This document shows, in pieces, positions 3,213 to 40,625 of a DNA stretch of 64,000 nucleotides. This DNA comes from Candidatus Curtissbacteria bacterium (GTDB lineage: Bacteria > Patescibacteriota > Microgenomatia > Curtissbacterales > GWA2-41-24), in contig JACPEV010000006.1 of assembly GCA_016183325.1 (NCBI GenBank), positions 5,883 to 69,882 of the forward strand, in the 5' to 3' direction. The notes below the pieces were generated by a model. That model saw only the letters and a program-made list of their open reading frames with translations, did no database searches and had not been told where the DNA came from. Every line of letters begins with the position of its first letter. The stretch's first letter is position 1. A program made the translations under genes and the position numbers.

Positions 3213-4160
3213 CTAAATTTTCCCCGCGCTCCCAAAAACGTCAATTTTCCCCTCAACCACTGCCGTCACCGCCATTACGATATCTGAAGCTAGTTTGTAA
3301 TATGTATATTCATTTGGATTTTCCCCGATTTTTTCGTTTAATGCATCCTTAAACGCTTGTCTTATCTCTGTATTAACATTCACCTTCACGATCCTGCCGA
3401 CTTTTATTGCCTCTCTTATTTGCTCTGCTGGTATCCCCGACCCGCCATGCAAAGAAAGAAAAGTATTCGGGAGCGCTTCTTTTATTTTTTTTAAAAGTTC
3501 AATATCCAGATCAGGCTGGTTAGGAAAAGTCCCATGAATATTCCCAAAAACGCTGGCAAAAATATCAACTCCGGTTTCCGCAACAAACTTTGCCGCGCGC
3601 AGAGGATCAGAATAGGATTTTTTTAATATTTCTAAATCAATTTGCTCGGTATGGACTTCACTCGAGCCGGAAAGTTTATCCAACTCTCCTTCCACAAGCA
3701 GATTTTTTGCGTGTGCCGCCGCAACTACCCTTTTTGTATTCTCGACATTTTGCTCGTACGACAACTCCGATCCGTCAAAGTGGATATCATCAAAACCCAC
3801 AAACGACACCTCCGAGGTGTGAGGAACTTTCACCTCGGAGGTGGAGGAGTTATCAACCGCGAAGTCACCAGACCGCAAGCGAAGTCGAAGGGCCTCCATA
3901 CAATCCTCCACCGTCTTGGCGTGGTCCAAGTTTAAAAGAATCGGAATACCATATTGCTTCCTTGCATTAGCAACTAAATCCACAATATTTTTAAGACCAA
4001 AATATCCGGCTTCGCCGGACGAAAACTCCATCATCACTGGCGATCTTTTTTTCTGTCCGGCTAAACAAATCGCCTTGAAAATCTCAAAGTTATCCACATT
4101 AAAAGCCCCGATGGCAAATCCTTCATTTTGAGCTCTGATGAACCACTCTCTTGCGGTCAT
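3213..4160 (-). CDS. fba: Class II fructose-bisphosphate aldolase. Carries an in-frame palindromic insertion.
   Basis: Class II FBA signatures: N-terminal IRAQNEGFAIGAFN, LNLDHAKT, GELD, LHGGSGIP. The internal segment LRLRLRSGDFAVDNSSTSEVKVPHTSEVS is encoded by the palindromic element at 3807-3895. Confidence 0.85.
   Translation of the reverse strand: MTAREWFIRAQNEGFAIGAFNVDNFEIFKAICLAGQKKRSPVMMEFSSGEAGYFGLKNIVDLVANARKQYGIPILLNLDHAKTVEDCMEALRLRLRSGDFAVDNSSTSEVKVPHTSEVSFVGFDDIHFDGSELSYEQNVENTKRVVAAAHAKNLLVEGELDKLSGSSEVHTEQIDLEILKKSYSDPLRAAKFVAETGVDIFASVFGNIHGTFPNQPDLDIELLKKIKEALPNTFLSLHGGSGIPAEQIREAIKVGRIVKVNVNTEIRQAFKDALNEKIGENPNEYTYYKLASDIVMAVTAVVEGKIDVFGSAGKI
3807..3895. repeat. Palindromic insertion of family P1 lying in frame inside fba. 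It carries two CACCTCCGAGGTG / CACCTCGGAGGTG units and a GCGAAGTCGAAGGGC core.
   Basis: CACCTCCGAGGTG at 3807-3819 and CACCTCGGAGGTG at 3831-3843. Each is near-self-complementary. The same termini occur at 30468-30503 and 40311-40368. Confidence 0.7.
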
Positions 4161-4162
4161 TC

Positions 4163-4561
4163 TTAATTTTTAATTTTTAATTCTTTCTCTTCTTTAAATT
4201 CCGAATAAATCTTCAGTCCCCAAAAACCATTAACAGCCGCCATCAAAAAATAAGGGGACCAGAAGAGAGATTTTGCAGTTATTCCCTGTCCCAATTCAAA
4301 TCCCTCAACAAGAATAATAGAAAGTAGCGTAAATTCAAATATTGAAATCAAGGTTAAAAGCGCAACAGACTTGATTGTTCCCATGAACCATAAAAAAGCC
4401 ACCGGACCAAACATCACCAGTCCAAAAGCCATGCCGTTTATAAATTCTCGTGAGATAACAAAATCCCAAATATTGAGAAAGATAAAAATAAATAAGAGAT
4501 TTATCTTCAGCAAATTCATCTTTCTCTTCCCGGTCAATTTAAATAATGCTCTTAGATTCAT
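4163..4561 (-). CDS. Hypothetical small integral membrane protein.
   Basis: 132-aa ORF with 3-4 hydrophobic helices. Tightly packed between fba and rpiB. Confidence 0.35.
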   Translation of the reverse strand: MNLRALFKLTGKRKMNLLKINLLFIFIFLNIWDFVISREFINGMAFGLVMFGPVAFLWFMGTIKSVALLTLISIFEFTLLSIILVEGFELGQGITAKSLFWSPYFLMAAVNGFWGLKIYSEFKEEKELKIKN

Positions 4562-4616
4562 TTAATCAACCTATAGCATAACCATCACATTTTCTGACAT
4601 ATCATAAGTTGTGATG

Positions 4617-5063
4617 CTAAAGGAGCTCCTCTTTTGATATTTTATCTATTCTTCTCTGATGCCTACCTCCTTCAAATTTAGCCGCGAGCCACAAAGTCAC
4701 GCCCCTTTTGGCGTCATCGTCTGACACAAATCGTGCGCCCAGTGATAAAACATTGGCGTCATTATGCTCCTTGGCAAGTCTGGCAATATCAAAAGGCGGT
4801 CCGTAAAAAACCGCGGCTCTTACTCCTTTGACTTTATTGGCAGCAATCGCTTCACCCTGACCAGAACCTCCAATGACAATCCCGACAGACGCCTTATCGG
4901 CAATTACCTTCTTTGCACAAGGAATAATAAAATCCGGATAATCATCCGCCTCATCAAGTTCATATGCTCCGCAATCGAAAATCTCGTATCCTTTAATTTC
5001 CAAATATTTGATTAGCCGCTTCTTTAAATAAAACCCCGCATGATCAGAAGCAATGTAAATCAT
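4617..5063 (-). CDS. rpiB: Ribose-5-phosphate isomerase B (RpiB/LacAB family).
   Basis: MIYIASDHAGFYLK N-terminus and CGAYE, GIVIGGSGQGEAIAANK, typical RpiB. Confidence 0.85.
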   Translation of the reverse strand: MIYIASDHAGFYLKKRLIKYLEIKGYEIFDCGAYELDEADDYPDFIIPCAKKVIADKASVGIVIGGSGQGEAIAANKVKGVRAAVFYGPPFDIARLAKEHNDANVLSLGARFVSDDDAKRGVTLWLAAKFEGGRHQRRIDKISKEELL

Positions 5064-6470: not shown

Positions 6471-6690
6471 AAAATTCGAATATCGAATATATGATGTTAA
6501 ATCATATTTTTGATAAATCAAAAAGCGAAATACGAAACAATTCTGTATTCTAGAAAATAGTTTCTAGAAACTGGAAAGCGAAGTTTTGCTTCGCAAAATT
6601 GGAAATGGAAAATTGAGATTGGAAAATAGTTATAATTTATTCTCCATTTTCTATTTTCTACTTTCCTCGTGCTTCGGATTTCGGATTTTA
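6471..6690. repeat. Intergenic repeat IR-A, copy 1 of 3.
   Basis: About 170 bp nearly identical to 8219-8462 and 10446-10685. Shared core: GCGAAAT.CGAAACAA...TATTCTAGAAAATAGTTTCTAGAAACTGGAAA...AATGGAAAATTGAGATTGGAAAATAGTTATAATTTATTCTCCATTTTCTATTTTCTACTTTCC. Confidence 0.8.
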
Positions 6691-7779: not shown

Positions 7780-7795
7780 AAAAAATTTTCAACTT

Positions 7796-8218
7796 TCAAT
7801 TTTCAACTTTCAATTTCCTAATTGCTTCCAGTGCCAAAAAGGCGCACTTCAGTCTGGCCGGTGCCACCGGCCCACCAATTAAACTCAAGACATCTTGCCC
7901 AGTTAACTTACCCACACTTTCTACTGACTTACCGCGAATCTCCTCAGACAATATTGAAGCAGATGCCGTTGATATCGCGCAACCCGAACCGGTAAATGAA
8001 ACATCCCTGATCATCGCGCTTTTGCCCTTAGCAGGGACACCCCCGGGGTGGGCTTTGACTCCCCGGGGGTGGGAAACCCGGGAAATTTTGAAATAAAAAG
8101 TCACTTCATCACCACATAATGGATTGATTTGATTTACAACTAAATCAGCATGACTAATTACACCGTAGTTTTGCGGATTCTGCCAATGCTCCAATATTTC
8201 TTCGCGATAGATATCCAT
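7796..8218 (-). CDS. sufU: SufU/NifU-like Fe-S assembly scaffold. Carries an in-frame palindromic insertion.
   Basis: NPLCGDE, GSGCAIS and LKCA motifs of IscU/SufU. The extra segment SRVSHPRGVKAHPGGVPAKGK is encoded by the palindromic element at 8040-8092. Confidence 0.75.
   Translation of the reverse strand: MDIYREEILEHWQNPQNYGVISHADLVVNQINPLCGDEVTFYFKISRVSHPRGVKAHPGGVPAKGKSAMIRDVSFTGSGCAISTASASILSEEIRGKSVESVGKLTGQDVLSLIGGPVAPARLKCAFLALEAIRKLKVEN
8040..8092. repeat. Palindromic insertion of family P2 (CACCCCCGGGGTG ... CCCCGGGGGTGGG) in frame inside sufU.
   Basis: Near-perfect palindromic 13-mers at 8048-8060 and 8071-8083. The reverse complement of the 17813-17840 segment in trxB matches GCAGGGACACCCCCGGGGTGG here. 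Confidence 0.7.
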
Positions 8219-8462
8219 AATTTAAAAATCCGAATATCGAATAAGATCGTTTTGCTTCGCAAAGGCGAAATTCGAAACAAATCTTATTCTAGAAAGTAGT
8301 TTCTAGAAACTGGAAATTGGTAATGGAAATTTGAGATTGGAGAATAGTTATAATTTATTCTCTATTTACTACTTTCCATTACAATTTTCTCTTTTTCAAG
8401 GAAAAATATGCTCTCATACTTTCCAGTAACTAATTTCTTCATACATGGATTTCGTGCTTCGA
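8219..8462. repeat. Intergenic repeat IR-A, copy 2 of 3. Its 3' part supplies the last codons and stop of sufS.
   Basis: Alignment to copies 1 and 3 as given for 6471-6690. The C-terminal KHEIHV-stop of SufS lies inside the repeat. Confidence 0.8.
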
Positions 8463-9692: not shown

Positions 9693-9768
9693 CCTCAGCT
9701 AAGAAACACATCCGATGTGCTCTCTTGACGTAAACAGGACTTCACATCGGATGTGAAGCGAAGCTACT

Positions 9769-10445: not shown

Positions 10446-10685
10446 AAGTTTATAAATTCGAATAAGATCGTTTTGCTTCGCAAAAGCGAAATTCGAAACT
10501 CGAAACAATTTTGTATTCTAGAAAATAGTTTCTAGAAACTGGAAATTGGAAATGGAAAATTGAGATTGGAAAATAGTTATAATTTATTCTCCATTTTCTA
10601 TTTTCTACTTTCCATTACAATTTTCTAATTTCCAGTAACTAATTTCTTTATGCACTAATTTCGTGCTTCGGATTTCGAATTTTTT
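10446..10685. repeat. Intergenic repeat IR-A, copy 3 of 3. It overlaps the last codons of sufD.
   Basis: Alignment as given for 6471-6690. The SufD C-terminal KHEISA-stop is encoded inside the repeat. Confidence 0.8.
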
Positions 10686-11827: not shown

Positions 11828-14800
11828 TCATCCTACCGCCCCTATCATTTCCAACTGAATTAACCTATTCAACTCAACTGCATACTCGAGTGGTAATTCC
11901 TTAACAATCGGTTCAATGAAACCGTTGACAATCAAAGAAGTTGCTTCCATCTCTGTTAAACCCCGACTCATCAGATAAAACAATTGTGCCGCATCAATCC
12001 TGGAAACCGCTGCCTCATGCCCGATTCGCACATTATCTTCATTAACCTGCATCGTCGGATAAGTATCGCTTCTTGATTTCTCATCCAAAATCAACGCATC
12101 ACATCTCACATTACACTTAACCCTTTCTGCATTTTTAATCACTTTAACCAACCCACGATACGAGGTCCGGCCTCCAAACGCACTAACAGATTTTGAAATA
12201 ATCTCGCCGCTTGTATCCGGTGCCAAAAACATCAGTTTTCCGCCGGCATCCTGATGTTGCCCTGCCCCGGCGTAAGCTAGGGACAAAACCTCTCCTCTTG
12301 CCCCTCTTCCAACCAAATAACAGCTCGGATATTTCATCGTAATTTTACTGTTATGAACCACTATGCCATTCGCAATAAAATTCGCAGTTTTATCTACCTC
12401 AATATCATAGACTCGCAATCTACCTATGGGTTCAATCGAGCGAACTCTGGTAAATCTCAAGGTCGGATCGAACTCTTTTTTTTCTATTATTCTCTCCAAA
12501 TTACCTCTAATGTTCATAGATAAATAATGAGACGTGTACTCAATTAATCTCCCTTTATATAGTTTTCGTTCCTTTGTGTAGGTTGTGATTTTTAATGGAT
12601 CCAAACCAACCGACATCATCAATAACTTTAAACTTTCGAGTAGATTTTTATTTGCGCTCGCAAAAACTATTTGACCATATTGATTTCCATCTTTTTTGAT
12701 CGCCTTTCTTAAGTAACCATCAGCATCAAAGTACCCCTCAATAAATGCCAGCTTCTCTCTTCTTGAAAGGCTAAATATCCAATTAGGAATTTTTTTCGTT
12801 TTAGCTGTACCCGAAAAACCCAAATCTAAAAATAACTTAGCCAAAGCTGTTGAATTAACTGTCAGAGAGATACCCTTAGGAGTAAACGGAATATCAAAAA
12901 CAAACTTTAGAAGTTTTTCTAGCTTTTTGCGCGCATGATCATTTGGTGGTACTGCAAAATAAATTCTTCGAACAACTCCCGAAAATGAACGATCCATACA
13001 GCCATCACCCAAGTATAGACCCAACAGCCACATCAGCTCTTCAGAAGTCTTATTAGGAATTGTTGGTTTGTGCTTTAAAAGATGTTGATCATAACTAAAA
13101 TTGATTTCATATGGTTTTCCATCATCTGGAAGTTCGTTAACGATAGCAATCCAATCACCTACTTTTAAATTTTCCAGTTTTTCCCATCTCAAGGTCACCA
13201 AACCAATGTTAGAAGTTTTTCTCAAAACCAGAAATGGATGATTAGCTGTTGCCTCAATTTCTCGATAGTTGGTGGTTAAAACTTTAAATACCGGCTTTAC
13301 GCCCTGATCAACGACTGCATTTACCTTGCTTTTTGCTGCTTTAAGAGTATTCAAATCTGTAGTATAAATCCAATCGCCGGCTTTTAAATCTTTAATACTG
13401 ACTGGCCCTTCTGGATTAGTAAAAAGCTTTGCATTTTCCGTTAAACATCCGATATTAGCATCCACCCACTCCATCGTCCCTTCTTCCTCAACAAATGCCC
13501 GCTTTGTCACCAGGTTATAAACATTACTTGACCAATTTTGAATTGTGGTATATCGACAGCGCGCTCCGCGCTTAACAAAAATCTCCACCACCGCCGCATG
13601 CAAAGAATCTGTTGTATAAACCGGGGCGGTGCAATTGTGCGAAATGACACCTTCAGCGACATATGATTCATCTTCTTCGACACTAAAGTTGTAAACACTA
13701 GTATTCAATTCTTCTACCTTAATTGATTTAATAGGAAGATAAATATAGTTTTCATCCATAAAAAATGGCGATCCTTCTTTGCGCCCGTTTAGCACGTCTT
13801 TTTGAACAATTTGGCCAAAAAAGACATTAGATGTACGCGAAATAATGACAGTGTACATAATTTGCCTGGGCATTACCCTCTTATGTAGATTAATTGAAGC
13901 GACTACCCCAATTTTCAATAATGCATCGCGAAACCCATATGCTAATTGTCTAGTAACTGAATTGTATCTAAATAAATTCGCTTTTTTGTCATAGCTTCCA
14001 TCGCCCCTCCATAACCCTTTGATCAATTCGCCCAAGTGCGACTTAGGACTTTCCAGCATCCATGCGGATATGTGTTTCGTCCTATTTGTAGAACCAAATT
14101 CTCTACGAAAAAATCTCGCAGCAAGGGTTGAACAAATTGTAATAGTCTGCCCATTGTTTCTTATTTTTCCCTCTATAACTTCTTTTCCAAAATAAAGAGT
14201 CAATAAACTTTTTACATCTTTTAAATATTCTTTTTCTTTTATGTTGAAAGTAAAAGTCAAGTAATGATCTTTATCAACGTGCCCTTCTGAAAGATAGTAG
14301 CCCACCAGACGATAAAAATCAGGATCGAGTGTTAGCTTAAGACTTTTTTGTGTTACATGAATGCCATTTCCAAAAGGAATTTGGAGATCTATATTCGGTT
14401 TAAAGTTATAAATAAATGGTTTCTCCAAATTCAAAGGAACAGTCTTAATCGTATCCGTTTCTACAATCTCTTTCTCTGTTTCTTTTCTTTGAATTGGAAA
14501 AACCAAATAATCACCTAATTCCACTTTGTCAGCCCTGATCCACTCAGGTGAGAAATATGTGTTTCTATACTCCTTTTTTTCTCTTTTGCAAACAAAAAGA
14601 GGGTGCTCTTCCGTTACTTTTAAAACAGCATCACTGTCACCGTAATACTTAATAGAAAAAATCTTGCCCTTGTATTGACGTTTCATGGTATTGTAAACGC
14701 GTCTATATCTTCCTTTATGAGTTAATACATTGTCTCCAACTTCAATATCCTCAATTAGTTTCTCTCCCTGATCAGTCTTCACTCTTGCACCTGCAATGAA

Positions 14801-15496: not shown

Positions 15497-15775
15497 CTTT
15501 TATTGTTCGAGTGAAATCGAGAACAACAAGCTTGTCTTATTGTTCGAGTGAAATCGAGAACTTACCATTCCTCAAATTGTCATCCTGAACTTGTTTCAGG
15601 ATCTTATGGTAACTTCTCGACTCGCTTCGCTCGCTCGAAGAATATTACTCCATTTTGCCGACAACTTCCTATTTGTCATTCTGGCTTGTCCAGAATCTGC
15701 TTACTTGTCATTCTCGACTCGATCGAGAATCTGGATCCTGAATTGAATTCAGGATGACAAGACGACTAAGTTCCC
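15497..15775. repeat. Cluster of short hairpin/MITE-like units between sufB and sufC. Includes a tandem 24-mer and GTCATCCTGAA/TTCAGGATGAC and GTCATTCTGG/CTTGTCCAGAATC units.
   Basis: TATTGTTCGAGTGAAATCGAGAAC duplicated in tandem (15501-15560). Inverted repeats GTCATCCTGAAC..TTCAGGATC, GTCATTCTGGCTTGTCCAGAATC, GTCATTCTCGACTCGATCGAGAATC, GGATCCTGAATTGAATTCAGGATGAC. Confidence 0.7.
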
Positions 15776-15960: not shown

Positions 15961-16818
15961 TTACTCGCCAACGTATTCCAAACCCGGTTTGGAATAGCTT
16001 TGCGAGTCAGGATTAGAGACCACAGACTGATAACCTTTTTGCTCTATTTCTTGAGCTAATTTCGCCTTCCCCGATTTAACGATCTTCCCATCAACCATCA
16101 CATGCACAAAATCTGGCTTTAAGTATTTCAAAATCCTTGCATAGTGCGTTATCAGAATAATTGAGGATCTCGGATTCACTTTGATGAATCGAATTATCGA
16201 AGTGGCAACAAGTTTCAATCCGTCAACATCCAAACCGCTATCAATCTCATCCAAAATCACCAATTTAGGCTTCAGTGCCATCATCTGCAAAATCTCATTC
16301 CTCTTTTTCTCCCCCCCGGAAAAGCCTTCATTAAGCGAACGGCTTATGAAGTCATCGGAAAGTTTTAGCGAGGATGCATACTCGAGAAGTTCTTCTCGAA
16401 ACTTCGAAAGTTTGTTCAGGGGTTCAACCCCCGAAACTACTGACGGTGCTCGGGCTTTAGGGGTTGAACCCCTCGTCTGTCCCAAAATACTCTGCTTCGC
16501 ACGGCGAAGCACATTAAACACGCTCACTCCCGGCACTTCCACCGGATGCTGAAATCCCAAAAATATTCCTAATTTCGCCCTTTTATCGGGAGAAAGATTT
16601 CTTAAATCTTTCTCGTCCATCGTTAATCGTCCATCGTTAATCGTATAGAATGGGTACCCCATGACAACTTGGGCAAGAGTAGATTTGCCCGAACCGTTCG
16701 GCCCCATCAATACATGCATTTCTCCCGGTCGGATCGTCAGATCTAGACCTTTCAAAATCCCCTTCCCTTCGACTGAGACTCGCAAATTTTGAATTTTTAA
16801 TAAAAGTTCATCGTTCAT
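15961..16818 (-). CDS. sufC: SufC, the Fe-S assembly ABC ATPase. Carries an in-frame palindromic insertion.
   Basis: Walker A GPNGSGKST, ABC signature FSGGEKKR, Walker B LVILDEIDSGLD, H-loop ITHY. The extra segment TRGSTPKARAPSVVSGVEPLNK is encoded by 16419-16472. A 14-bp tandem duplication (ACGATTAACGATGG x2) lies at 16617-16644. Confidence 0.85.
   Translation of the reverse strand: MNDELLLKIQNLRVSVEGKGILKGLDLTIRPGEMHVLMGPNGSGKSTLAQVVMGYPFYTINDGRLTMDEKDLRNLSPDKRAKLGIFLGFQHPVEVPGVSVFNVLRRAKQSILGQTRGSTPKARAPSVVSGVEPLNKLSKFREELLEYASSLKLSDDFISRSLNEGFSGGEKKRNEILQMMALKPKLVILDEIDSGLDVDGLKLVATSIIRFIKVNPRSSIILITHYARILKYLKPDFVHVMVDGKIVKSGKAKLAQEIEQKGYQSVVSNPDSQSYSKPGLEYVGE
16419..16472. repeat. Palindromic insertion of family P3 (GGGGTTCAACCCC ... 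GGGGTTGAACCCC), 54 nt, in frame inside sufC.
   Basis: Inverted 13-mers at 16419-16431 and 16460-16472. Length is a multiple of 3. The position corresponds to a loop insertion relative to canonical SufC. Confidence 0.7.
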
Positions 16819-17072: not shown

Positions 17073-17459
17073 TTAACGATTTGCCAAATCAGCTACCGTT
17101 TTCCTCCCAATTGTCTCCTCAAGCTGTTTTTTGACATCTTCCCACATATCCCCAGCTCCACAAACACATTCGTGATCATCCTCAAAACATTTCCCTTCAA
17201 CAATTTCCCCGTCTAAAATCTTCAAAACATCCAAAAGCTTAATTTCATCAGCTGATTTGGCAAGCTTATATCCCCCAGTTACACCTTCCTTAGAAGAAAT
17301 GATGCCAGCATTTTTAAGATCATTTGCAATCTGAGAAAGAAATTTGGCAGAAATTTTATTTTTCTTGGCAATCGAGGAAACTGAAACCAATTTCTTGGAG
17401 TTAGATAAATTTGATAAAAGTATCAATCCGTAATCAGCTTTTTGAGATAATCTGAACAT
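17073..17459 (-). CDS. Rrf2-family transcriptional regulator (IscR/SufR-like), head of the suf operon.
   Basis: Rrf2 wHTH N-terminus (MFRLSQKADYGLILLSNL ... SVSSIAKKNKISAKFLSQIANDL) and a C-terminal Cys cluster CFEDDHECVCG that fits Fe-S ligation. Confidence 0.75.
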   Translation of the reverse strand: MFRLSQKADYGLILLSNLSNSKKLVSVSSIAKKNKISAKFLSQIANDLKNAGIISSKEGVTGGYKLAKSADEIKLLDVLKILDGEIVEGKCFEDDHECVCGAGDMWEDVKKQLEETIGRKTVADLANR

Positions 17460-17638: not shown

Positions 17639-18682
17639 CTAATCATTTTGCGCTTCCAACCACTTCTCAGCCTCAATTGCAGCCGCACAGCCGTATCCTG
17701 CCGCCGTCACCGCTTGACGATAGTGGTAATCGTGTACATCTCCGGCCACAAAAACGCCAGGAACCGACGTCATCATTTTGAAACTTCCTTCCCCACCCCC
17801 GGGGTGTGCCGCAGGCGCAACACCACCCCGGGGGTGTCCCTGCGACTTGCGTACCACATACCCTTTCTCGTCAAGCTCCACCTGCCCCTTAAAAATATCC
17901 GTCATCGGGTGGTGACCAATTGCCACAAACATGCCATCAACTGCCAAGTCCCGAGTCGATCCATCTTTTAGGCCCGCAGCCGCAGGCGAGGACCGCAAGC
18001 CTGGCAAACTTACAGGTGAGCCAGGCTTATTCTTGATCTTTACTCCGGAAACTTTATCCTTCCCTAGAATGTCAACCACTTCAGAATTTAATATAAACGA
18101 AATCTTCTTATTTGCTTTTGCCCTATCTACCATTATCTTCGACGCCCGAAACTCATCTCTACGATGAACAATCGTCACCTCAGTCGCAAACTTGGTTAGA
18201 GTCAACGCTTCCTCCATTGCGCTATCCCCACCACCAACCACAACCACTTTTTTATCGCGAAAGAAAAATGCATCACACGGTGCGCAAGAAGAAATTCCCC
18301 GACCAATTAATCTTTGTTCATTGGCAAGTCCCAACCAATTTGTCTCGGCCCCGGTTGCAATAATAACTGCCTTTGATTTGTATGCTTTATCATCGGCTGT
18401 TATCAAAAAAGGACGATTGGAAAAATCAACTGCAGTCACATCAGTGGTTGCAATTTCCGCCCCAAATCTTTCGGCTTGATGCCGAAATTTCTCCATCAAT
18501 TCCGGCCCTAAAATTCCATCAACAAAACCCGGATAATTCTCAACATCCGTAGTCAACATCAATTGCCCACCCCATTTGACACCAGCTAAAACCAAGGGTT
18601 TCAAATCTGCCCGTGCATTGTATAAAGCGGCCGTTAATGCCGCCGGTCCGGAACCGATGATAATGACGTTACGAATATCCAT
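17639..18682 (-). CDS. trxB: Thioredoxin-disulfide reductase carrying two in-frame palindromic insertions.
   Basis: GSGPAALTAALY FAD motif, CAPCD redox centre, VVVGGGDSAMEEALTLT NADPH motif, VPGVFVAGDV. Likely start is MDIRN at 18680-18682. Extra segments KPGSPVSLPGLRSSPAAAGLKDGSTRDL and RKSQGHPRGGVAPAAHPGGGEGSFKM are absent from canonical TrxB. Confidence 0.8.
   Translation of the reverse strand: MDIRNVIIIGSGPAALTAALYNARADLKPLVLAGVKWGGQLMLTTDVENYPGFVDGILGPELMEKFRHQAERFGAEIATTDVTAVDFSNRPFLITADDKAYKSKAVIIATGAETNWLGLANEQRLIGRGISSCAPCDAFFFRDKKVVVVGGGDSAMEEALTLTKFATEVTIVHRRDEFRASKIMVDRAKANKKISFILNSEVVDILGKDKVSGVKIKNKPGSPVSLPGLRSSPAAAGLKDGSTRDLAVDGMFVAIGHHPMTDIFKGQVELDEKGYVVRKSQGHPRGGVAPAAHPGGGEGSFKMMTSVPGVFVAGDVHDYHYRQAVTAAGYGCAAAIEAEKWLEAQND
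17790..17845. repeat. Palindromic insertion of family P2 in frame inside trxB, in inverse orientation to the sufU copy.
   Basis: CACCCCCGGGGTG at 17794-17806 and CACCCCGGGGGTG at 17824-17836. The reverse complement matches the element at 8040-8092. Confidence 0.7.
17958..18030. repeat. Second GC-rich hairpin insertion in trxB (CCCGCAGCCGCAGGCG ... AAGCCTGGC...GCCAGGCTT).
   Basis: Local GC spike and an inverted repeat AAGCCTGGC / GCCAGGCTT. Encodes the extra LPGLRSSPAAAGLKDGSTRDL segment. Confidence 0.5.
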
Positions 18683-21058: not shown

Positions 21059-21679
21059 CTAGACATGCCTATCAGCCACATGGCTGGCGCCCCAAGAAGC
21101 GGGTTTTGTAGCAACTTTGAAGCCGTTGGCCCGAATCATTCCCACAATCTCCGAAATCATTTCCCGCGTTGGCCCATTAGGTCCAATATCAACATGAATT
21201 TCGAGGTTAAGATCAGCCCTTCGACGTTGCTCAGGATTGATGGTGAGCGAAGTCGTACTTCGATTCCACTCAGTACGACCTCCTCGAGTCTGAGGGACCT
21301 CGGAGTCGAAGACCTGAGTGTTAATCGAATGGGTCGAACCATCAAATAACCCAATATTCGCAAAATCAGAAACTAACTTTTCCGCTACTGATAAAGAAAT
21401 CAAAGCTTCCTGCCAGATTCTCTGCCGTAAAGAATGTAAGTTCTCTACCTTTTGCCTTCCCCAAAAATAAATCCCTCCCTTGCCTTTTTTATGCACAATC
21501 ACGGCCGAAACGAAATCAACCGTTCCATTCTGGGCCTCCGAATCCGTACCGATAATCACTTCATAAGAACCCATCACATCGCTTCCCACAAACTTCACCA
21601 TCTGACACAAAGCATCTTCCCAATCAAGGTGACCATACGTAGGACTATTAAAAGACTCCGGTACCAATTTTCCCTTCAT
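21059..21679 (-). CDS. YkuK/DUF458-family RNase H-like protein with a ~30-aa repeat-derived insertion.
   Basis: Matches YkuK landmarks: IIGTDSE, HKKGKGG, IHVDIGPNGPTREMI, KPASWGASHVADRHV. The internal STHSINTQVFDSEVPQTRGGRTEWNRSTTSLTINPEQRRRADLN is encoded by hairpin-rich DNA at 21214-21312. Confidence 0.55.
   Translation of the reverse strand: MKGKLVPESFNSPTYGHLDWEDALCQMVKFVGSDVMGSYEVIIGTDSEAQNGTVDFVSAVIVHKKGKGGIYFWGRQKVENLHSLRQRIWQEALISLSVAEKLVSDFANIGLFDGSTHSINTQVFDSEVPQTRGGRTEWNRSTTSLTINPEQRRRADLNLEIHVDIGPNGPTREMISEIVGMIRANGFKVATKPASWGASHVADRHV
21214..21312. repeat. Composite hairpin insertion in frame inside the ykuK-like gene. Contains a CCTGAGCAACGTCGAAGGGC-type motif.
   Basis: AGCCCTTCGACGTTGCTCAGG, GTCGTACTTCGATTCCACTCAGTACGAC, GACCTCCTCGAG...GACCTCGGAGTCGAAG. 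The CTGAGCG.AGTCGAAGGG motif recurs at 36674-36700, 45326-45345, 40325-40345, 57738-57755. Confidence 0.6.
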
Positions 21680-29138: not shown

Positions 29139-31723
29139 AGTTCTGCCAATGCTTGCCTCATCACCTTGGCGGCTTTCTCATAATCTGTCCCTTTAACAAA
29201 GCTTAAGGGTTTTCCAATTGTAATCCCTACCATCCGTCTCTTCTTAGGCAAGTTCTCTCGCCAATTAGAAGAAAGGTCCTGGTTGAAAATCTCTCGGTAG
29301 GAAAAATCAATTTTTACGGGTATTGTCGGCACTTGCATCTCAACGGCCAGTAGCCCAACACCGGCCTTAAATTGCAAAAGATTATCGTCGCCAGCTACTG
29401 CTCCTTCCGGCGCCAATATCAGCGAAAATCCCTTATCTAAAAATTCACCGGTCACATCAAGCGAAGCCTTAATCTTCTCCTTTTTATCAAACGGAAAACC
29501 GCCTGCCAAAATTTCCATAAATCGACCGCGTTTATCTTCCCAAAACTCGGAAGTCGCCGCAAAAACCAATTTTTCGCGAATAGCTCTTGGCAATACTCTT
29601 AGTACACACAACCCATCCAACACTCCTATGTGATTGAAGTAGAAAATCGCCGGAAGCTTAATATCCGTAAGATTCTCTCTTCCTTTAACCTCAAGTGGTG
29701 CAAACAAACTAAAAAGTGGAAAAAGCAAAAGATTTTGTAAAATTACTCTAATTTTTGAAAAAAACCACGAATAGGAAATTTTATTTATCTCAGTTTCCAG
29801 ATCACCCGGAATCGCCTCATCCACTAACTTTCTTAAATCACCAACCGTAGTCTTTGCATTAATTTTGGTCTCAAAAACGGCCACACCCAATTCTTCCTCA
29901 ATCAAAGATAACAGCTCAACGCGTCCTAGAGAATCTATCAGCAAATCACTAGAAAGTATTGAACTTTCCTTGATTTTTGAAACATCTACTTTTGTCACTT
30001 TAGAAATCAAATTAATCAACTTATCTTCTACTTTTCCTTGGCTTCCACCCTTAATTGCCTTTTTGCTGGAGATAGAGGCCAAGACCTTTTTGCGATCAAT
30101 CTTCAAAATCGGAGTCCTTGGGAAATCCTCATCAGGCCAGACACTCCAAGAGAGAATCTGCTCGTGTGAGGCCAAGTTTTGATTGACCTCACCAATGATC
30201 GCGCTTGCATCTTTCGGAAATTTTGTCACTAAAACTGCGTGAACAGCCTCTCCTTCTTCGCGGCCAACACCAACTACACAGGCCTCGGATACCTTAGGGT
30301 GGGCATTTAACTTCTTCTCCAAATCCTCGGGATAAACTTTTTGGCCATTAGGCAAAACGATTCGAAAACTTTCTCGACCGGTAATATACAAAAAACCGTC
30401 TTTATCTATCTGGCCCACATCTCCCGTTTTATACCAAGTCTCTCCACCTCCCAGGAGTCCATTCGGCCACCTCCGAGGTGACTGGATAGGCTCCTCGGAG
30501 GTGAAAGCTGCGCTGGTTTTTTCTTCATCCTCAAAATACCCAGGCGAAATGTTGGGTCCGCTGGCCTCAATTTCTCCCACAACTCCCGAAGTGTCAACGT
30601 ATCCCACACCCGGTGTGTGCTGAGTAGACACATCGGGATTTAGCCTTATTTTCATTCCGGGTAAAACTTTGCCGACTGAGCCCAAGCGCTTAGATCTCGG
30701 TGTGTTAATAGTCAAAGCAGCCGTCGTCTCCGTCGCACCATAACCCTCAAAAACATCAATACCTAAATTTTCCCAAGCTTTGGCCAGTTTTAAATCCAGA
30801 GGAGCCGATCCACAACCAAAAAACGTCAAATGACCACCAAGTTTTTTGTGAATTTTTAAAAAGATCATTCTTCTTAAAAAAAATGTCAAATATGGAGCAA
30901 TTTTATTAGCTGTCTTAAATTGTTCTAATTTCCCCTGGCGCTCAATTTCTCGCTCAATCCCGTTCATCAGTAGCCGCAATGCTTGAGGAACCAGTGCCAC
31001 GGAGGTAATTTTGTTCTTAAAAAGAGCCCGGATTATTGTCAGCGAGTTAATACGCTCTAAATAAGTAACCGTTATGCCAACTTTAAAAAGTGCCAAAAAA
31101 TCAACCACCTGCTCGAAAGCATGCGATAAAGGTAAAACTGAAAGCGCCCTCCAATTGGGCTTAAACGGAAAAACTTCACACAAAGCAGAAACACCCGAAA
31201 GAAAATTTCCGTGAGTCAGAATTACCCCCTTCGGTGTGCCGGTAGTTCCCGACGTAAAAGCAATCTCTGCTAGATCGTCAGGTTTAACATTGGGGAGATT
31301 AGGGTGATTGGGGAAATTTTTGATAAGATCGGTTAATTCCTCCAAATAAAAACTGGCGTCAACTAACTTCCCGAAATTCCCCGGAATAAATTTCCCGGCA
31401 AAACCAACTCTACATTTGGCTTTTTCCAGAAAAATTTTGAGGGTTTCTTCAGTTGTGCGAACATCGATCGGCACCACCACCAACCCCAAAAGCCAACAGC
31501 CAAAATAAAGGATCGGATACTCCGGCATATTGGAAGACCAGATAGAGACCTTGTCACCTTTTTTGAGACCTTTGCCGGACAAAAAAGCCGCTGTTTTATA
31601 AGCCAATAAATTGATTTCTTCAAAAGTAAACCTCTGAGTTCTCAACCCGCGTTTAATCTGATACGCAACATGATCTTTATGAAGCCGCGAATATTTTTCT
31701 AAAAATTGGCCCAAATTCTGCAT
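29120..31723 (-). CDS. Tri-domain acyl-activating enzyme: acyl-AMP ligase (FadD/AAE) + acyl carrier protein domain + lysophospholipid acyltransferase (PlsC/LPLAT). Functionally Aas-like.
   Basis: AMP-binding motifs TSGTTGTPKGV, YGATE, YKTGD. ACP-like phosphopantetheine site LLIDSLGRVELL. LPLAT motifs FNHIGVLDG (HX4D) and LAPEG. An in-frame P1 palindromic insert lies at 30466-30505. Confidence 0.7.
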   Translation of the reverse strand: MQNLGQFLEKYSRLHKDHVAYQIKRGLRTQRFTFEEINLLAYKTAAFLSGKGLKKGDKVSIWSSNMPEYPILYFGCWLLGLVVVPIDVRTTEETLKIFLEKAKCRVGFAGKFIPGNFGKLVDASFYLEELTDLIKNFPNHPNLPNVKPDDLAEIAFTSGTTGTPKGVILTHGNFLSGVSALCEVFPFKPNWRALSVLPLSHAFEQVVDFLALFKVGITVTYLERINSLTIIRALFKNKITSVALVPQALRLLMNGIEREIERQGKLEQFKTANKIAPYLTFFLRRMIFLKIHKKLGGHLTFFGCGSAPLDLKLAKAWENLGIDVFEGYGATETTAALTINTPRSKRLGSVGKVLPGMKIRLNPDVSTQHTPGVGYVDTSGVVGEIEASGPNISPGYFEDEEKTSAAFTSEEPIQSPRRWPNGLLGGGETWYKTGDVGQIDKDGFLYITGRESFRIVLPNGQKVYPEDLEKKLNAHPKVSEACVVGVGREEGEAVHAVLVTKFPKDASAIIGEVNQNLASHEQILSWSVWPDEDFPRTPILKIDRKKVLASISSKKAIKGGSQGKVEDKLINLISKVTKVDVSKIKESSILSSDLLIDSLGRVELLSLIEEELGVAVFETKINAKTTVGDLRKLVDEAIPGDLETEINKISYSWFFSKIRVILQNLLLFPLFSLFAPLEVKGRENLTDIKLPAIFYFNHIGVLDGLCVLRVLPRAIREKLVFAATSEFWEDKRGRFMEILAGGFPFDKKEKIKASLDVTGEFLDKGFSLILAPEGAVAGDDNLLQFKAGVGLLAVEMQVPTIPVKIDFSYREIFNQDLSSNWRENLPKKRRMVGITIGKPLSFVKGTDYEKAAKVMRQALAELQESRK
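30466..30505. repeat. Palindromic element P1 in frame inside the aas-like gene.
   Basis: CACCTCCGAGGTG at 30468-30480 and CTCCTCGGAGGTG at 30491-30503. Encodes the extra SPRRWPNGLLGGG before the YKTGD motif. Confidence 0.65.
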
Positions 31724-35122: not shown

Positions 35123-35306
35123 TTCTCTTAGGACTTACGCACTTCGTGCCTGACTGTCATTCTGGCCCTAAGGTCCGGGTCTAGGACTTGTCCAGAATCT
35201 GAAGCTAATTTTGGAAACACTGCGTAAGTCCTGTTCTCTGAGTCTATCACAAAATTATCCAACTTAGAATCCACTTTTTCCAAAAATCAAATCATTTTGA
35301 ATCTGC

Positions 35307-35876: not shown

Positions 35877-35904
35877 AATTCTTAAATCAATATCGACCCC
35901 AAAA

Positions 35905-35924
35905 CCTGCCTGCCGGCAGGCAGG
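35905..35924 (-). terminator. Perfect 20-bp palindrome CCTGCCTGCCGGCAGGCAGG followed, on the minus strand, by TTTTGGGG. Likely terminator of the minus-strand relE/phd operon.
   Basis: Perfect palindrome, with a T-rich tract on the minus-strand side only. Located inside the first msrA-3'-end repeat copy. Confidence 0.5.
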
Positions 35925-35992
35925 TCCAAAAATTGTACAAGGAATTTAAAAGTGCAGTTAAATCAGATTGAAAGTTTCAACCGAAACTTAAT

Positions 35993-36976: not shown

Positions 36977-37303
36977 TTGGATAGCCTAACTTTGGATATT
37001 TTTGAACTTTTATTTTCCGTGCCAAACTCTAAGAACAAATTAGAAGTTCTTTTACAAATTAGTATTAAGTTGGATCTCATAAAAATACTTTTAAGACTTA
37101 GCAAAGACACGCAAGCAATAAAGAACAACAAATATTTAGAACTGCAAGCAGTGCTTCAAGAAATAGGCAAGATGCTTGGCGGTTGGATTCGCTCCACCAA
37201 GCAAAGCTTCCCGATTAGAATCATCTTTCTAGAAACTACCGCGGGGAAGGCCCAAATGTGCGGATTGCCATCGTCACGGTTCCAGTCATTGACGTTCAGT
37301 TGA
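36977..37303 (+). CDS. Four-helix-bundle protein (23S rRNA IVS-protein family). Homology extends upstream to about 36820 without a canonical start, so it may be a pseudogene.
   Basis: The in-frame upstream translation NQANLFIQYKFATSCIPIFAKLYDFYKNLSQEITTFPKTKRYTLGQRL matches the N-terminal half of the family (FPKxxKY, LxxQLxR). An AAGGAA SD lies at 36813-36818, but the codon 8 nt downstream is AAG, not ATG. Confidence 0.4.
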   Translation: MDSLTLDIFELLFSVPNSKNKLEVLLQISIKLDLIKILLRLSKDTQAIKNNKYLELQAVLQEIGKMLGGWIRSTKQSFPIRIIFLETTAGKAQMCGLPSSRFQSLTFS

Positions 37304-37657: not shown

Positions 37658-38083
37658 TCATGCTTTTCTCTTTTTAAAATATTCCGGTAAAGTCCAAGCA
37701 AGAGTTTTGGAATGCACAATTCCTATTCCCCGAAACTTTTTAAGCTTAATTAAATCCTGATCAAGAGTAACTATTAAATCTGCCTCTCCAGAGACAGCAC
37801 ATTCCAAGATTTTGTTATCTTCAGGATCTCGCAAGATCACTGACACTTTTTCCTTGATTTCTACAACTTCTGCGATCTTTCTCACACTGGCGACGAAATA
37901 ATCAATATTTTCTTCTCTCCAGTGAAATTTATCTTTAAGTTTTTGGGTTAGTTCTGTGAGGATTTCTTCCGATGTGATAGCTGTTAAATCATTACTTCTG
38001 GTTACAAGCTCTATAATTTCTGCCGAAAAACTGTTCTTAAGCGCTGCGGCAATGTAGATATTGGTGTCAAGAACCACTCTCAT
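37658..38083 (-). CDS. PIN-domain toxin (TIGR00305-type VapC-like).
   Basis: N-terminal VVLDTNIYIAA acidic motif and C-terminal LECAVSGEADLIVTLDQDL. 4-nt overlap with the upstream antitoxin gene. Confidence 0.65.
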   Translation of the reverse strand: MRVVLDTNIYIAAALKNSFSAEIIELVTRSNDLTAITSEEILTELTQKLKDKFHWREENIDYFVASVRKIAEVVEIKEKVSVILRDPEDNKILECAVSGEADLIVTLDQDLIKLKKFRGIGIVHSKTLAWTLPEYFKKRKA

Positions 38084-38374: not shown

Positions 38375-38812
38375 TCAAGAAAATTCTTCCGGTGTAGCGA
38401 AGGCAACGGTTTTGATTTTGGAAAAATCGACATCATAGGTTATTATTTTTGAGTTTTTTGGAACTTGCGTGGCAATGAGGCAGTCGGCGTATTTTATATT
38501 TAATCTCCGGAAAGTTTTCATCGCCGCCCTGGTATTCGTCTTTTCTATCAAAGTAAGGTTCCTAAGACCAAGAATTTTAAAAATAGCCTCAAGAACTTCC
38601 TTTTTAGAAAATTCATAAACTCTTGTAAGAACAAATAGGATTTCAAGCAAAACTATATTCGAAGTATAAGGGCGAATTTTAGCGCCCTTTTCAATTAGTT
38701 CCAAAAGATGGACGCAGTCGCCAAGCTTCTTTTTATCATCAGCCGTAAAGTATCTTATAAAAATGCTTGTTTCGAGGAAGACCTTATCCACCTTACTTAC
38801 CATTTTCCCCAA
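38375..38812 (-). CDS. PIN-domain toxin (VapC-like).
   Basis: VFLETSIFIRY N-terminal Asp region and a PIN-type C-terminal acidic residue set. 16-nt overlap with the upstream AbrB-type antitoxin gene. Confidence 0.6.
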   Translation of the reverse strand: MGKMVSKVDKVFLETSIFIRYFTADDKKKLGDCVHLLELIEKGAKIRPYTSNIVLLEILFVLTRVYEFSKKEVLEAIFKILGLRNLTLIEKTNTRAAMKTFRRLNIKYADCLIATQVPKNSKIITYDVDFSKIKTVAFATPEEFS

Positions 38813-39039: not shown

Positions 39040-39192
39040 TACATATTGTAAGCTATTGATTATATTTTGTCAATAATAACTATCTTACATCGCCATCGAC
39101 CCCAAAATCAAAAACTTAACAACTTAACTAATCTTCAATGCTGATACAATGGATATGAATAATGATACAATCAAAACAAAGGGGGTGAAAAA

Positions 39193-39765
39193 ATGTTAAG
39201 TACTCTTGCAGAAAAAATCAAAGATACTTTAATTACTATCATTGAAGCATCTGGCGATGTCGTCGCAACTGCCAGGGACACAGTTAAAAAGACAATTGTA
39301 GATACAGTTAGAGGTGCCGGTGAAGTCACGTCTGGCGCCATGGGAACTGTTTCCGACGTTGTCACAGGTGGAGCTGCTGCCGCTTCCAAATCCGCTGTGT
39401 CAACTATTGATGGAGTTGCCGGTGTTGTCGAAGGAGCTATCGAAGCAGCGCAAGAAGTTGGAGCAGACATTGCCAGTGCCATTGTCGAGTCTTCAGAAGG
39501 CGCTATCAAGGGAGTTTCTGATGTCGGTGGGGATCTCGGCGATGCTGCCGTCGGTGCGCTCAGAGGCACGATTCAAGCCGCCTCAGTTGTTGGCACAGAT
39601 ATCACAGATGCGACAACTAAAGCTGTAGTCGGAGTTCTAAAAGCAGCCGACGAGATCGGTTCAGAAGCTGGTGGCACAGTCAGAAAAGCTCTTCTTTCGG
39701 CAGCCGCCTTACCTAGAGAAATAATCGAGGCAGCCATTGGAAAAGCTGACGGCGGCAAAAAGTAA
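39193..39765 (+). CDS. Ala/Gly/Val-rich protein built of ~11-residue amphipathic repeats (apolipoprotein/LEA/phasin-like).
   Basis: Periodic 11-mers (VGADIASAIVE, SEGAIKGVSDV, GGDLGDAAVGA, LRGTIQAASVV ...). Local GC content is clearly above the window average. The antisense ORFs here are spurious. Confidence 0.45.
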   Translation: MLSTLAEKIKDTLITIIEASGDVVATARDTVKKTIVDTVRGAGEVTSGAMGTVSDVVTGGAAAASKSAVSTIDGVAGVVEGAIEAAQEVGADIASAIVESSEGAIKGVSDVGGDLGDAAVGALRGTIQAASVVGTDITDATTKAVVGVLKAADEIGSEAGGTVRKALLSAAALPREIIEAAIGKADGGKK

Positions 39766-39773
39766 TTTAGGCA

Positions 39774-40625
39774 TTATTTTCCTAGATAAAACTTCTTTTT
39801 TCCGGCTTCAAATCTCTCAATTGCATAGCGAAGCATCGTTCGTGGCATTTGTTTGTAGTGTTTTCTCAAAAACTCTTCCTCAACCTGCTGATCTCTCTTG
39901 CCCACTTCCCTGAGCATCCACCCTACCGCCTTATGTATCAAATCATGCTTATCAGAAAGCAACATTTCGCCAATTTTCAGAGTCCACGTAAAATCTTTCT
40001 TTTCTTTAATGAATTGAAATGTAGCAATAATGGCAATCCTTCGCTCCCATAGATTATTTGATCTTGCCAGTTTTTCTAAAATGTCATTCTGGGGATCCGG
40101 CGAAGCCGGAGACTCCAGTTTTCTAGCTTTGATTCTGGACAAGCTCGCCTCACTCCGCGCCTGCGTCGACGATAGTCGCGGGCGGAGCGGGCCAGAATGA
40201 CGAGAATTTATCAAATACCCGCCCACAATTTTATCGGCCGATAAATCAACTAAGTCCCAATTATTAATGTACTTTGTATTCTTAAGATAAAAATCGAAAA
40301 TTAATCTCTTCACCTCCGAGGAGCCCCCTTCGACTTCGCTCAGGGCAAGCGAGCTCACCTCGGAGGTGTTTTGGATCCGTTCTACCAAAATTAAAAGTGC
40401 GATTAACCTTTCTTCGTGAATCTTCGATCTCAAAAGTTTCTCAATCTCGCCAAATGAAAGGTCTTTAAATTTTTGGGCAATCTTCCTAGACTGTGGCACC
40501 GTAATTCCCAAAAACACATCCCCTTCCCCATATTGCCCTTTCCCCGTTTTAAAAAATCTTGCCAAAATCTTAGCTTTCTTCTTATTTTTCAGTTTTTTTA
40601 AATCCCTCCTCAACTCGAAAATCAT
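39774..40625 (-). CDS. DNA alkylation repair enzyme (AlkD/AlkC HEAT-repeat family) with two in-frame MITE insertions.
   Basis: N-terminal LKKLKNKKKAKILARFFKTGKGQYGEGDVFLGITVPQSRKIAQKF and C-terminal WERRIAIIATFQFIKEK...HKAVGWMLREVGKRD match PF08713. The extra segments SEVEGG... and SGPLRPRLSSTQARSEASLSRIKARKLESPASP are encoded by 40083-40203 and 40309-40370. Confidence 0.6.
   Translation of the reverse strand: MIFELRRDLKKLKNKKKAKILARFFKTGKGQYGEGDVFLGITVPQSRKIAQKFKDLSFGEIEKLLRSKIHEERLIALLILVERIQNTSEVSSLALSEVEGGSSEVKRLIFDFYLKNTKYINNWDLVDLSADKIVGGYLINSRHSGPLRPRLSSTQARSEASLSRIKARKLESPASPDPQNDILEKLARSNNLWERRIAIIATFQFIKEKKDFTWTLKIGEMLLSDKHDLIHKAVGWMLREVGKRDQQVEEEFLRKHYKQMPRTMLRYAIERFEAGKKKFYLGK
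40083..40203. repeat. Nested MITE inside the alkD-like gene: a GTCATTCTGG/CCAGAATGAC shell (inverted orientation) enclosing the P4 core CGCCTGCGTCGACGATAGTCGCGGGCG.
   Basis: GATTCTGGACAAGC ... GCCAGAATGAC termini at 40131-40203. The P4 core is the reverse complement of 22634-22660. A further GTCATTCTGGGG unit lies at 40084. Confidence 0.7.
40309..40370. repeat. P1 palindromic element (CACCTCCGAGGA ... CACCTCGGAGGTG) with a CTTCGACTTCGCTCAGGGC core, in frame inside the alkD-like gene.
   Basis: Termini at 40311-40322 and 40356-40368. The core is the reverse complement of the CTGAGCGAAGTCGAAGGG motif. Confidence 0.7.

Follow-up and report, generated by a model that had tools for sequence, protein, structure and literature searches.

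Short GC-rich hairpin repeats dispersed within and between genes of Candidatus Curtissbacteria and other Microgenomates

The stretch of DNA analysed here (64,000 nucleotides, hereafter the window) comes from Candidatus Curtissbacteria, a member of the Microgenomates within the candidate phyla radiation (CPR); its TrxB and FBA are identical to NCBI proteins assigned to a Candidatus Curtissbacteria bacterium. Nearly all genes from 1 to 42 kb of the window lie on the minus strand, and a number of them, like some intergenic intervals, hold the short GC-rich repeats with inverted arms that are the subject of this study. The original prediction had described these repeats as in-frame insertions in housekeeping genes and had sorted them into at least four families (P1 to P4). 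All of the sites it named are present, displaced by a few bases at most, and so is the local rise in GC content (about 68-71% in the inserts, about 41% in the window). Pfam matches identify the host genes as coding for class II FBA, NifU_N/SufU, the SufC ABC ATPase, TrxB, an RNaseH_like protein (PF04308), an Aas-like protein (AMP-binding plus acyltransferase) and an AlkD-like protein (DNA_alkylation); the match to GDSL-lipase is weak and sub-threshold. Every listed host gene is an uninterrupted open reading frame (ORF) with extra residues, and in all of them except aas these residues are missing from solved homologues and/or close orthologues. We argue below that the repeats are probably selfish DNA kept where protein loops tolerate it. 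The genic sites and one intergenic doublet are as follows ("doublet" denoting an arm, a spacer and an inverted arm, and z the folding z-score).

3801..3884, minus strand: composite insert in fba, residues 93-120; PDB FBAs lack it and 85 of 120 orthologues are empty here
Arms 3807-3819 and 3831-3843, minus strand: P1 doublet in fba, 11-nt spacer, read as TSEVKVPHTSEV; z -5.2
Within 3801..3884, minus strand: second part of the fba insert, a GCCCTTCGACTTCGC-type element read as ALRLRLRSG
8015..8086, minus strand: sufU insert, P2 doublet with one arm at 8038-8050 and the second, with 1 mismatch, at 8059-8071; spacer class GGCTTTGACT, read as SHPRGVKAHPGGV; absent in loci L002 and L005
9707..9755, minus strand: intergenic doublet CACATCCGATGTG / CACATCGGATGTG with CACATC arms and a 23-nt spacer; z -4.3
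16419..16472, minus strand: P3 doublet in sufC, GGGGTTCAACCCC, 28-nt spacer, GGGGTTGAACCCC; read as GSTPKARAPSVVSGVEP; z -5.1
17794..17836, minus strand: P2 doublet in trxB, 17-nt spacer GTGTTGCGCCTGCGGCA (coding strand), read as HPRGGVAPAAHPGG; z -4.1
17958..18030, minus strand: second trxB insert, PGSPVSLPGLRSSPAAAGL, with hairpin GCCTGGC (17999-18005) / GCCAGGC (18020-18026)
21214..21312, minus strand: 27-residue insert in the RNaseH_like (PF04308) gene, with one hairpin nested in another; not present in L002, L005 or L006
22625..22672, minus-strand gene: P4 copy in the GDSL-like gene, CGCCCGCGACTATCGTCGACGCAGGCG on the plus strand; the L002 orthologue lacks it
22830-22899, minus strand: second hairpin insert in the GDSL-like gene; the L002 orthologue lacks it
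30468..30503, minus strand: P1 doublet in the aas-like gene, second arm CTCCTCGGAGGTG; z -4.2
40083..40202, minus strand: composite insert in the alkD-like gene, a reverse-complement shell around a P4 core; z -3.9
40311..40368, minus strand: P1 doublet in alkD with a CCCTTCGACTTCGCTCAGGG element nested as its spacer; read as TSEVSSLALSEVEGGSSEV; z -3.7

The fba insert had been placed at 3807-3895; the insert is real, but alignment assigns it to residues 93-120, that is 3801-3884. The doublet at 9707..9755 sits between sufS and the next minus-strand gene. In sufC, the P3 insert is extra relative to the T. thermophilus protein, while the second trxB insert is absent from L001, L002, L004 and L005 and common to P0002 and P0004. 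In the RNaseH-like gene, outer arms CCCTTCGAC / GTCGAAGaCC enclose an inner hairpin, GTCGTACT...AGTACGAC. The aas-like doublet falls between the AMP-binding N domain and the C-terminal subdomain, and a lone arm-like palindrome, CACACCCGGTGTG, is located at 30605-30617. The alkD shell consists of CTTGTCCAGAATC (40131-40143) and GTCATTCTGG (40193-40202), accompanied by a forward GTCATTCTGG at 40083 and a hairpin, GGATCCGGCGAAGCCGGAGACTCC. A further perfect 17-nt palindrome, GGCCGGTGCCACCGGCC, occurs on the minus strand at 7856-7872, inside sufU, where the protein is conserved (LIGGPVAPARLKC); rather than an insert, it reflects either chance or constrained codon choice.

The main family has a fixed layout in which a spacer separates a 13-nt arm from its exact reverse complement. 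Arms start with CAC, end with GTG and are usually odd palindromes themselves (e.g., CACCTC-C-GAGGTG, with partner arm CACCTC-G-GAGGTG). The pattern CACCNCSGNGGTG, allowing at most one mismatch, has 10 matches in the window against 0.24 expected, and none of 100 shuffles reached 10. Scanning one genome per species for CACCNCCGNGGTG-N(5-35)-CACCNCGGNGGTG gave at least 117 loci. Splitting the matches listed by genome composition separated 69 low-GC doublets from 49 chance matches in high-GC genomes; the doublet counts that follow, for arms, spacers, frames, positions and orientations, are among these listed matches. Both free arm positions are complementary between arms in 68 of the 69 low-GC doublets, as opposed to only 13 of the 49 chance matches. 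Palindromy within each arm as well is found in only 54 of the 69, the CATG and TGCA arm types and a further variant, CACCTTCGAGGTG/CACCTCGAAGGTG, being complementary between arms without being palindromes. Since complementarity between arms is kept more often than palindromy within them, the long hairpin is the conserved feature, and its pairing has been preserved through double changes. Folded as single strands, the doublets give stems that are 11-15 bp long, in most cases 13 bp, and their z-scores lie near -4 to -5; the sufU doublet folds less strongly (z -2.1). The favoured spacer lengths are 11 and 23 nt; spacers of 17 nt form a less frequent class and one of 29 nt was seen once, while those of 12 nt are likewise common, mainly in intergenic DNA. 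Within each length class the spacer sequence is conserved.

Contrary to the initial classification, P1 and P2 belong to a single family and differ as variants of its arm, with CACCCCCGAGGTG...CACCTCGGGGGTG and the CATG and TGCA types as intermediates between them. The families number more than four. One further family, GCCCTTCGAC...GTCGAAGGGC, is read as PFDFAQG, LRLRSG or GxPST in different hosts. Others are a "GPVSGF..LRAVGNPSTTATRN" element of about 120 nt, a "TSPKASAGQ" family and CCTGCCTGCCGGCAGGCAGG. Overall sizes range from about 37 to 120 bases, doublets measuring 37-49 bp and the largest family at most about 120 nt. Additional low-complexity peptide motifs were noticed in CPR proteins, namely DSSLTLRMTGG, SLRASAKQS..EIASS.TPRND and RSEATKQSEKEIA (from L058 2629-3900 and the UvrD orthologues P0330, P0331, P0342 and P0346). 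These look like translations of further hairpin repeat families absent from the window.

The palindromes recur, as the original prediction required of genuine repeats. P1/P2 doublets occur in dozens of Microgenomates genomes, low-GC matches coming from Curtiss-, Davies-, Roizman-, Levy-, Beckwith-, Shapiro-, Woese- and Gottesmanbacteria, and the element density is about 1 per 9 kb. Fifty-eight of 75 doublets (about 77%) lie within ORFs of at least 120 aa; the other 17 are outside, and intergenic copies directly follow gene 3′ ends. Where orientation could be assigned, 24 of 25 doublets point the same way relative to the coding strand. P3 doublets sharing the frame of the window copy and its spacer start, TAAAGC, were found inside long ORFs of other metagenome contigs; matches to the P3 pattern in metagenomes are heterogeneous: many represent direct repeats or resemble CRISPR arrays, and the comparable ones are limited to C...G doublets in ORFs. 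Scanning the window for Rfam families and tRNAs gave no matches. A phage vector for P1/P2 doublets showed no sign, because the viral collection IMG/VR yielded one match only. A census of GC spikes was dropped as a means of finding elements: it lacked specificity, many natural stretches rich in Gly/Ala being scored as well.

Taxonomic labels of some records called for caution. Some of the element-bearing metagenome-assembled genomes are labelled "uncultured Gammaproteobacteria/Pseudomonadales". For the one tested, L070 ("uncultured Gammaproteobacteria"), the label was rejected, its UvrD helicase being 100% identical to a Candidatus Daviesbacteria protein (NCBI). Record L117 is labelled Ferruginibacter at 75% GC, a value that does not fit this genus. 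Labels at odds with the sequence were seen in the TPA_asm series of metagenome-assembled genomes named "binchicken_*" and "SRP*_co*" (L021, L022, L024, L026, L033, L058, L070, L078, L117 and others); the taxonomic labels of these records should not be trusted.

Comparison with homologues indicates that the inserts are lineage-specific, as had been proposed. PDB homologues have no counterpart of FBA residues 93-120, of TrxB residues 219-240 and 278-303, or of about 19 residues in SufC, 20 in SufU and 51 in AlkD (the latter versus B. cereus AlkD). Among 120 Curtissbacteria-like FBA orthologues, 35 are filled, all at exactly one site and by many families, and 85 are empty. The filled alleles are spread over a distance tree, where several of them pair with an empty sister. 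One "empty" allele, L247 (159-1016; compared with L248 501-1430), encodes 285 aa, and its hot-spot loop is 3 residues shorter than in the baseline of 287-288 aa, as though an imprecise deletion had removed an element. Many Curtissbacteria TrxB orthologues (69-84% identity) are likewise empty. The TrxB loop following "GYVVRK" exists in four states depending on the orthologue (HPRG..HPGG, TSEV..SEV, GNPST..GSG, or nothing), and three other TrxB sites are filled in some orthologues. Syntenic contigs reveal a presence/absence pattern in SufU, SufS, SufC, Rrf2, the RNaseH-like gene, Tkt and the GDSL-like gene, with contigs lacking the sufU, RNaseH-like and GDSL inserts; the SufC loop varies in all orthologues examined. 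Besides FBA and TrxB, Daviesbacteria UvrD has a hot spot of its own, where 24 of 114 orthologues are filled and one element is nested in the spacer of another.

The insert-bearing genes do not look like pseudogenes: they are intact ORFs with conserved cores, and the AlphaFold model of FBA (98 orthologues) has a mean predicted local distance difference test score (pLDDT) of 90.8. Its only low-confidence stretch, residues 101-118, lies within the insert and forms a loop situated between helix 84-92 and strand 120-129; elsewhere the barrel is modelled with confidence. The TrxB model, built on a 23-sequence alignment, was too poor for use (mean pLDDT 64.8). Copies within genes lengthen them by whole codons and are free of stops. 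A search for copies that break the frame found none, the doublets outside ORFs being at ordinary intergenic positions. From these three features we infer that the inserts are translated as extra, probably disordered, loops of functional enzymes.

That the segments are copied DNA is apparent from their sharing among unrelated genes. The element of about 120 nt sits in L001 SufC and L005 Tkt and is absent from Tkt of both L006 and the window; across the stretch concerned L006 is about 85% identical to L005. (The window tkt, 25987-28023 on the minus strand, has about 45 extra residues of its own, …GVGVGVAARMVSHSTLNENETGSDQPKRQPKPNGHPDLNL…, near 26900-27100 relative to L005 and L006, with no obvious hairpin family member.) P4 occurs in two unrelated genes of the window, GDSL and AlkD, in opposite orientations (22633 on the plus strand, 40163 on the minus strand), both hosts being on the minus strand. 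The earlier suggestion that the same element is found in both orientations is thus upheld by P4. It does not hold for the sufU/trxB pair on which it was based: these have different spacer classes and their orientation cannot be read from the arms, because a doublet is its own reverse complement apart from the spacer. The 17-nt spacer GTGTTGCGCCTGCGGCA is flanked by P2 arms in the window trxB and by P1 arms in a Daviesbacteria gene (L050). The peptide PASPxQRGE appears at two UvrD sites and also inside a doublet spacer. One and the same DNA element gives HLRGE..HLGG in some genes and TSEVK..TSEV, by another frame, in others. More generally, the same element is seen in FBA, TrxB, Rrf2, UvrD and many other unrelated genes as well as in intergenic DNA, and the PFDFAQ element and the shell described below were also found in other loci.

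The remaining intergenic elements of the window are as follows.

15577..15760, no strand assigned: intergenic hairpin cluster of the form TTGTCAT-stem-loop-stem-ATC, with compensatory stems
35156..35199, plus strand: intergenic shell copy with core CCCTAAGGTCCGGGTCTAGGA
35904..35925, no strand assigned: intergenic perfect palindrome ACCTGCCTGCCGGCAGGCAGGT; the same 20-mer is the spacer of a P2 doublet in locus L034
36631..36704, plus strand: intergenic shell copy whose core has the hairpin GCCCTTCAAC...GTCGAAGGGC; z -3.2

The shell GTCATTCTGG...CTTGTCCAGAATC is empty at 15675-15697, inside the hairpin cluster, and encloses three different cores at 35156, 36631 and 40131-40202, in agreement with the view that the elements form a nested shell with interchangeable cores. 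The repeats are dispersed over many genome places and unrelated hosts, are patchily present, nest in one another and are read in two or three frames.

The explanation we favour, with a probability of roughly 0.7, is that very short, GC-rich, hairpin-forming repeats have multiplied in Microgenomates as selfish DNA akin to Rickettsia palindromic elements (RPEs) and REPINs (doublets of repetitive extragenic palindromes, REPs), mobilised in trans and retained only where loops tolerate them. The main family, a REPIN-like doublet, folds on one strand into its 13-bp stem, and copies land, or are copied, at many places in the genome. In genes, survivors would be those that span a multiple of three bases, hold no stop, are read as a peptide rich in Gly/Pro/Ser/Arg/Thr and occupy a permissive loop between elements of secondary structure. 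Propagation would require the folded hairpin and probably an enzyme acting in trans on single-stranded DNA, RAYT/HUH-like or other, encoded elsewhere or since lost. Earlier elements and permissive loops could serve as preferred landing pads. Homologous recombination between related genomes would spread filled alleles and, together with the landing pads, create hot spots.

Several observations weigh against this explanation. Pfam identified no transposase, RAYT (the REP-associated transposase), integrase or reverse transcriptase among the approximately 60 window ORFs. Target-site duplications were seen neither in five comparisons of filled with empty alleles (among them TrxB of the window, L002 and L004 vs L001 and L005; Tkt of L005 vs L006; TrxB of L125 vs L124; FBA of L248 vs L247) nor in 60 aligned copies; some "empty" alleles resemble imprecise deletions. 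The flank logo of 60 oriented copies has no conserved target, flank or GTAG/CGTC tag. Nor did about 0.6 Mb of low-GC loci contain a gene bracketed by two arms at a spacing of 0.2-4 kb, as would be expected of an autonomous element. No insertion polymorphism separates the near-identical pairs L005/L006 and L002/L003 (99.8-99.9% identity), and recent activity is therefore unsupported. The confinement of FBA inserts to one site fits random insertion followed by selection less well than targeting or recombination, and the 24:1 orientation bias could stem from selection at the peptide or RNA level rather than from a property of insertion. The CAC...GTG unit measures 37, 43 or 49 nt, i.e., 3k+1; a clean insertion would therefore break the frame, which leaves the in-frame junctions unexplained. 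Lastly, translation of the inserts, though probable, is deduced from reading frames.

Next in standing is the idea that hot-spot alleles spread mainly by homologous recombination: a few ancient loop insertions would be exchanged through flanking homology, with little or no ongoing transposition, and later remodelled by nested insertion, decay and imprecise deletion. FBA inserts that share one site yet belong to many families scattered over the tree are what such exchange would produce, and the L247 allele, 3 residues short, resembles an imprecise loss. L005 and L006 form a mosaic, 99.8% identical over 14 kb and about 85% upstream, and therefore indicate recombination; the failure to find target-site duplications or a transposase points the same way. 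We nonetheless regard this as an unlikely account of the whole, as it does not explain the same element in unrelated genes (SufC/Tkt, GDSL/AlkD, FBA/TrxB/Rrf2/UvrD) and in intergenic DNA. A copying mechanism is therefore still needed, and recombination complements the spread of selfish hairpin DNA without replacing it.

It is improbable that the repeats are functional nucleic-acid signals selected by the cell (mRNA stabilisers, pause or processing sites, operators, DNA-uptake or recombination signals), with the peptides as a by-product. Patchy presence among close orthologues of one gene implies that the element is indispensable to none, arms and spacers exist in many variants side by side, the host genes are functionally unrelated and no Rfam family matches. 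CPR bacteria depend on DNA uptake, which would lend such a role some appeal, yet known uptake sequences are far denser than the roughly 1 per 9 kb seen here. The features that speak for signals are the conserved inter-arm pairing, the strong orientation bias relative to the transcribed strand (24:1), the intergenic copies just after gene 3′ ends, as with REPs, and the stable UUCG-, GNRA- and CUUG-like loops that can be read in many elements.

Two other proposals are very improbable. The present data largely refute the notion that no DNA was inserted and that the segments are ordinary loops, whether fast-evolving or ancestral, or else a peptide module under selection: such segments do sit in loops of variable length in many protein families, and the SufC loop is variable throughout, but identical 13-nt arms and spacers recur in unrelated genes and non-coding DNA, the same DNA is read in different frames, its inverted symmetry is at the DNA level with compensatory changes, and most orthologues and all PDB homologues lack the segments. 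As to hairpins skipped at expression, by translational bypassing as in T4 gene 60 and the mitochondrial "byp" elements or by RNA excision, leaving canonical proteins, GC-rich hairpins in an AT-rich genome and duplicated arms giving identical codons on either side are byp-like traits, but 58 of 75 copies lie in long ORFs read straight through, whole codons without stops are added although a skipped element would face no such constraint, and the 17 copies outside ORFs are at ordinary intergenic positions and interrupt no gene.

Other features of the window were noted in passing. As related oddities, the Pfam scan revealed only a bAvd-like ORF, several PIN toxins and two SufB inteins. The window SufB (11828-15493, minus strand; 1221 aa) holds its two inteins as Hint and LAGLIDADG domains; SufB of L002 (8577-13418) has 1613 aa with more intein/LAGLIDADG matches and is followed by a GIY-YIG ORF, and that of L005 (13298-14695) has 465 aa and no inteins. 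The intein load is therefore polymorphic among Curtissbacteria. An AT-rich intergenic module of about 150 nt is present in three copies in the suf cluster (6515-6658, 8237-8389, 10458-10641; 75-98% identity) and holds TTCTAGAAA-type palindromes (repeats D6, D8, D14; inverted repeats I1, I2). It may be a repeated promoter/operator, for instance for the Rrf2-family regulator at 17073-17459. The bAvd-like ORF (36977-37303, plus strand) is below the Pfam cut-off; no reverse transcriptase was seen near it, and PIN-domain toxin genes follow at 37658-38083 and 38375-38812 (both minus strand). A 27-nt motif, AAAnnTCGTCATCGACCCCAAAAT (D19), is conserved at three intergenic places (36777, 38351, 39085). 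Segments of 200-300 nt are duplicated with 89-99% identity (D1-D5, D13): 50067-51304 matches 56322-56832 and 58545-59026, and 53140-53485 matches 58066-58339. The region, which encodes a polysaccharide deacetylase, PIN toxins, a NUDIX protein and small ORFs, looks like a recent segmental duplication or a cassette-like region.

In-frame palindromic repeats are, as a kind, already known from RPEs and intragenic REP dimers. RPEs were reportedly described by Ogata et al. in 2000. According to two later accounts, they are palindromic repeats of about 100-150 bp found in frame in unrelated, functional housekeeping genes (PMC10969869, PMC3733652), some with a CGTC tag (PMC3733652). The resemblance seen by the original prediction is sound: in both cases palindromes lie in frame in functional housekeeping genes of a small-genome bacterium, encode fold-compatible peptides, comprise several families, are patchy among relatives and have no identified transposase. 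The differences are size (37-49 bp doublets, up to about 120 bp, here), the CGTC tag of some RPEs, which has no equivalent here, the lineage (Alphaproteobacteria vs CPR/Microgenomates), and the strict arm-spacer-arm doublets, spacers clustered at 11, 17 and 23 nt, extreme single-site hot spots and nesting that set the present repeats apart from RPEs.

Intragenic REP dimers encoding 20-30 residues occur in Opitutus terrae, Thauera and R. conorii (Di Nocera et al. 2013, PMC3733652). REPs and REPINs resemble the repeats described here in that short palindromes form inverted doublets, and thereby a longer hairpin, intergenic copies lie beside gene 3′ ends, some dimers are inside ORFs and REPs serve as landing sites for other elements. 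They differ in that 60 oriented copies here show no GTAG/CGTC tag, no RAYT was seen among the approximately 60 window ORFs, about 77% of our listed doublets are genic whereas REPs are mostly extragenic, and the arms are perfect 13-nt odd palindromes rather than imperfect REPs of 20-40 nt. Bacterial MITEs (miniature transposable elements with inverted repeats) that invite comparison include Correia, ERIC, Coxiella QMITE and the Anabaena MITEs (PMC10969869). Like these, the present repeats are non-autonomous, have terminal inverted repeats (the 13-nt arms being exact reverse complements) and form in-frame fusions, which MITEs do occasionally; unlike them, they are much smaller, have a far higher in-frame genic fraction, and are accompanied by no target-site duplication or cognate insertion sequence that we could find. 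The label "RPE-like coding MITEs" given initially is apt in its first part; its MITE part found no transposase, target-site duplication or autonomous partner to back it. GC clusters, double-hairpin and "byp" elements of fungal mitochondria are also GC-rich mobile hairpins of AT-rich compact genomes, some in coding sequence; they differ in being organellar, and byps are bypassed by the ribosome whereas the elements here keep the frame and are presumably translated.

Literature searches, which did not extend to subscription journals, turned up no description of elements of this kind in CPR, and no published account was found for this lineage with this architecture. It is possible, and we put it forward tentatively at less than even odds, that the repeats constitute a hitherto undescribed class: palindrome-doublet mobile elements of 37-49 bp with companion hairpin families across Microgenomates, which would move through a folded single-strand intermediate by means of machinery other than a recognisable transposase, settle by preference in the loops of older elements and at a small number of permissive sites in genes, and act as a major, ongoing source of loop diversity in essential enzymes.

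The genomes of CPR bacteria are streamlined, and yet enzymes of Fe-S assembly, redox metabolism, glycolysis and DNA repair carry selfish-looking hairpin DNA that is apparently translated. If our interpretation is correct, the notion of selfish DNA in genes would extend from Rickettsia to a large and unrelated radiation of free-living or episymbiotic bacteria. The filled sites would provide a natural map of the loop positions at which conserved enzymes tolerate 12-40 extra residues. They would also account for a large share of the differences in length between CPR orthologues and for their spurious low-complexity segments, which hamper annotation and structure prediction. The interpretation also poses the question of what copies a 37-nt hairpin without target duplication or a visible transposase; the compensatory arm variants and clustered spacer lengths offer handles for finding the mobilising enzyme.

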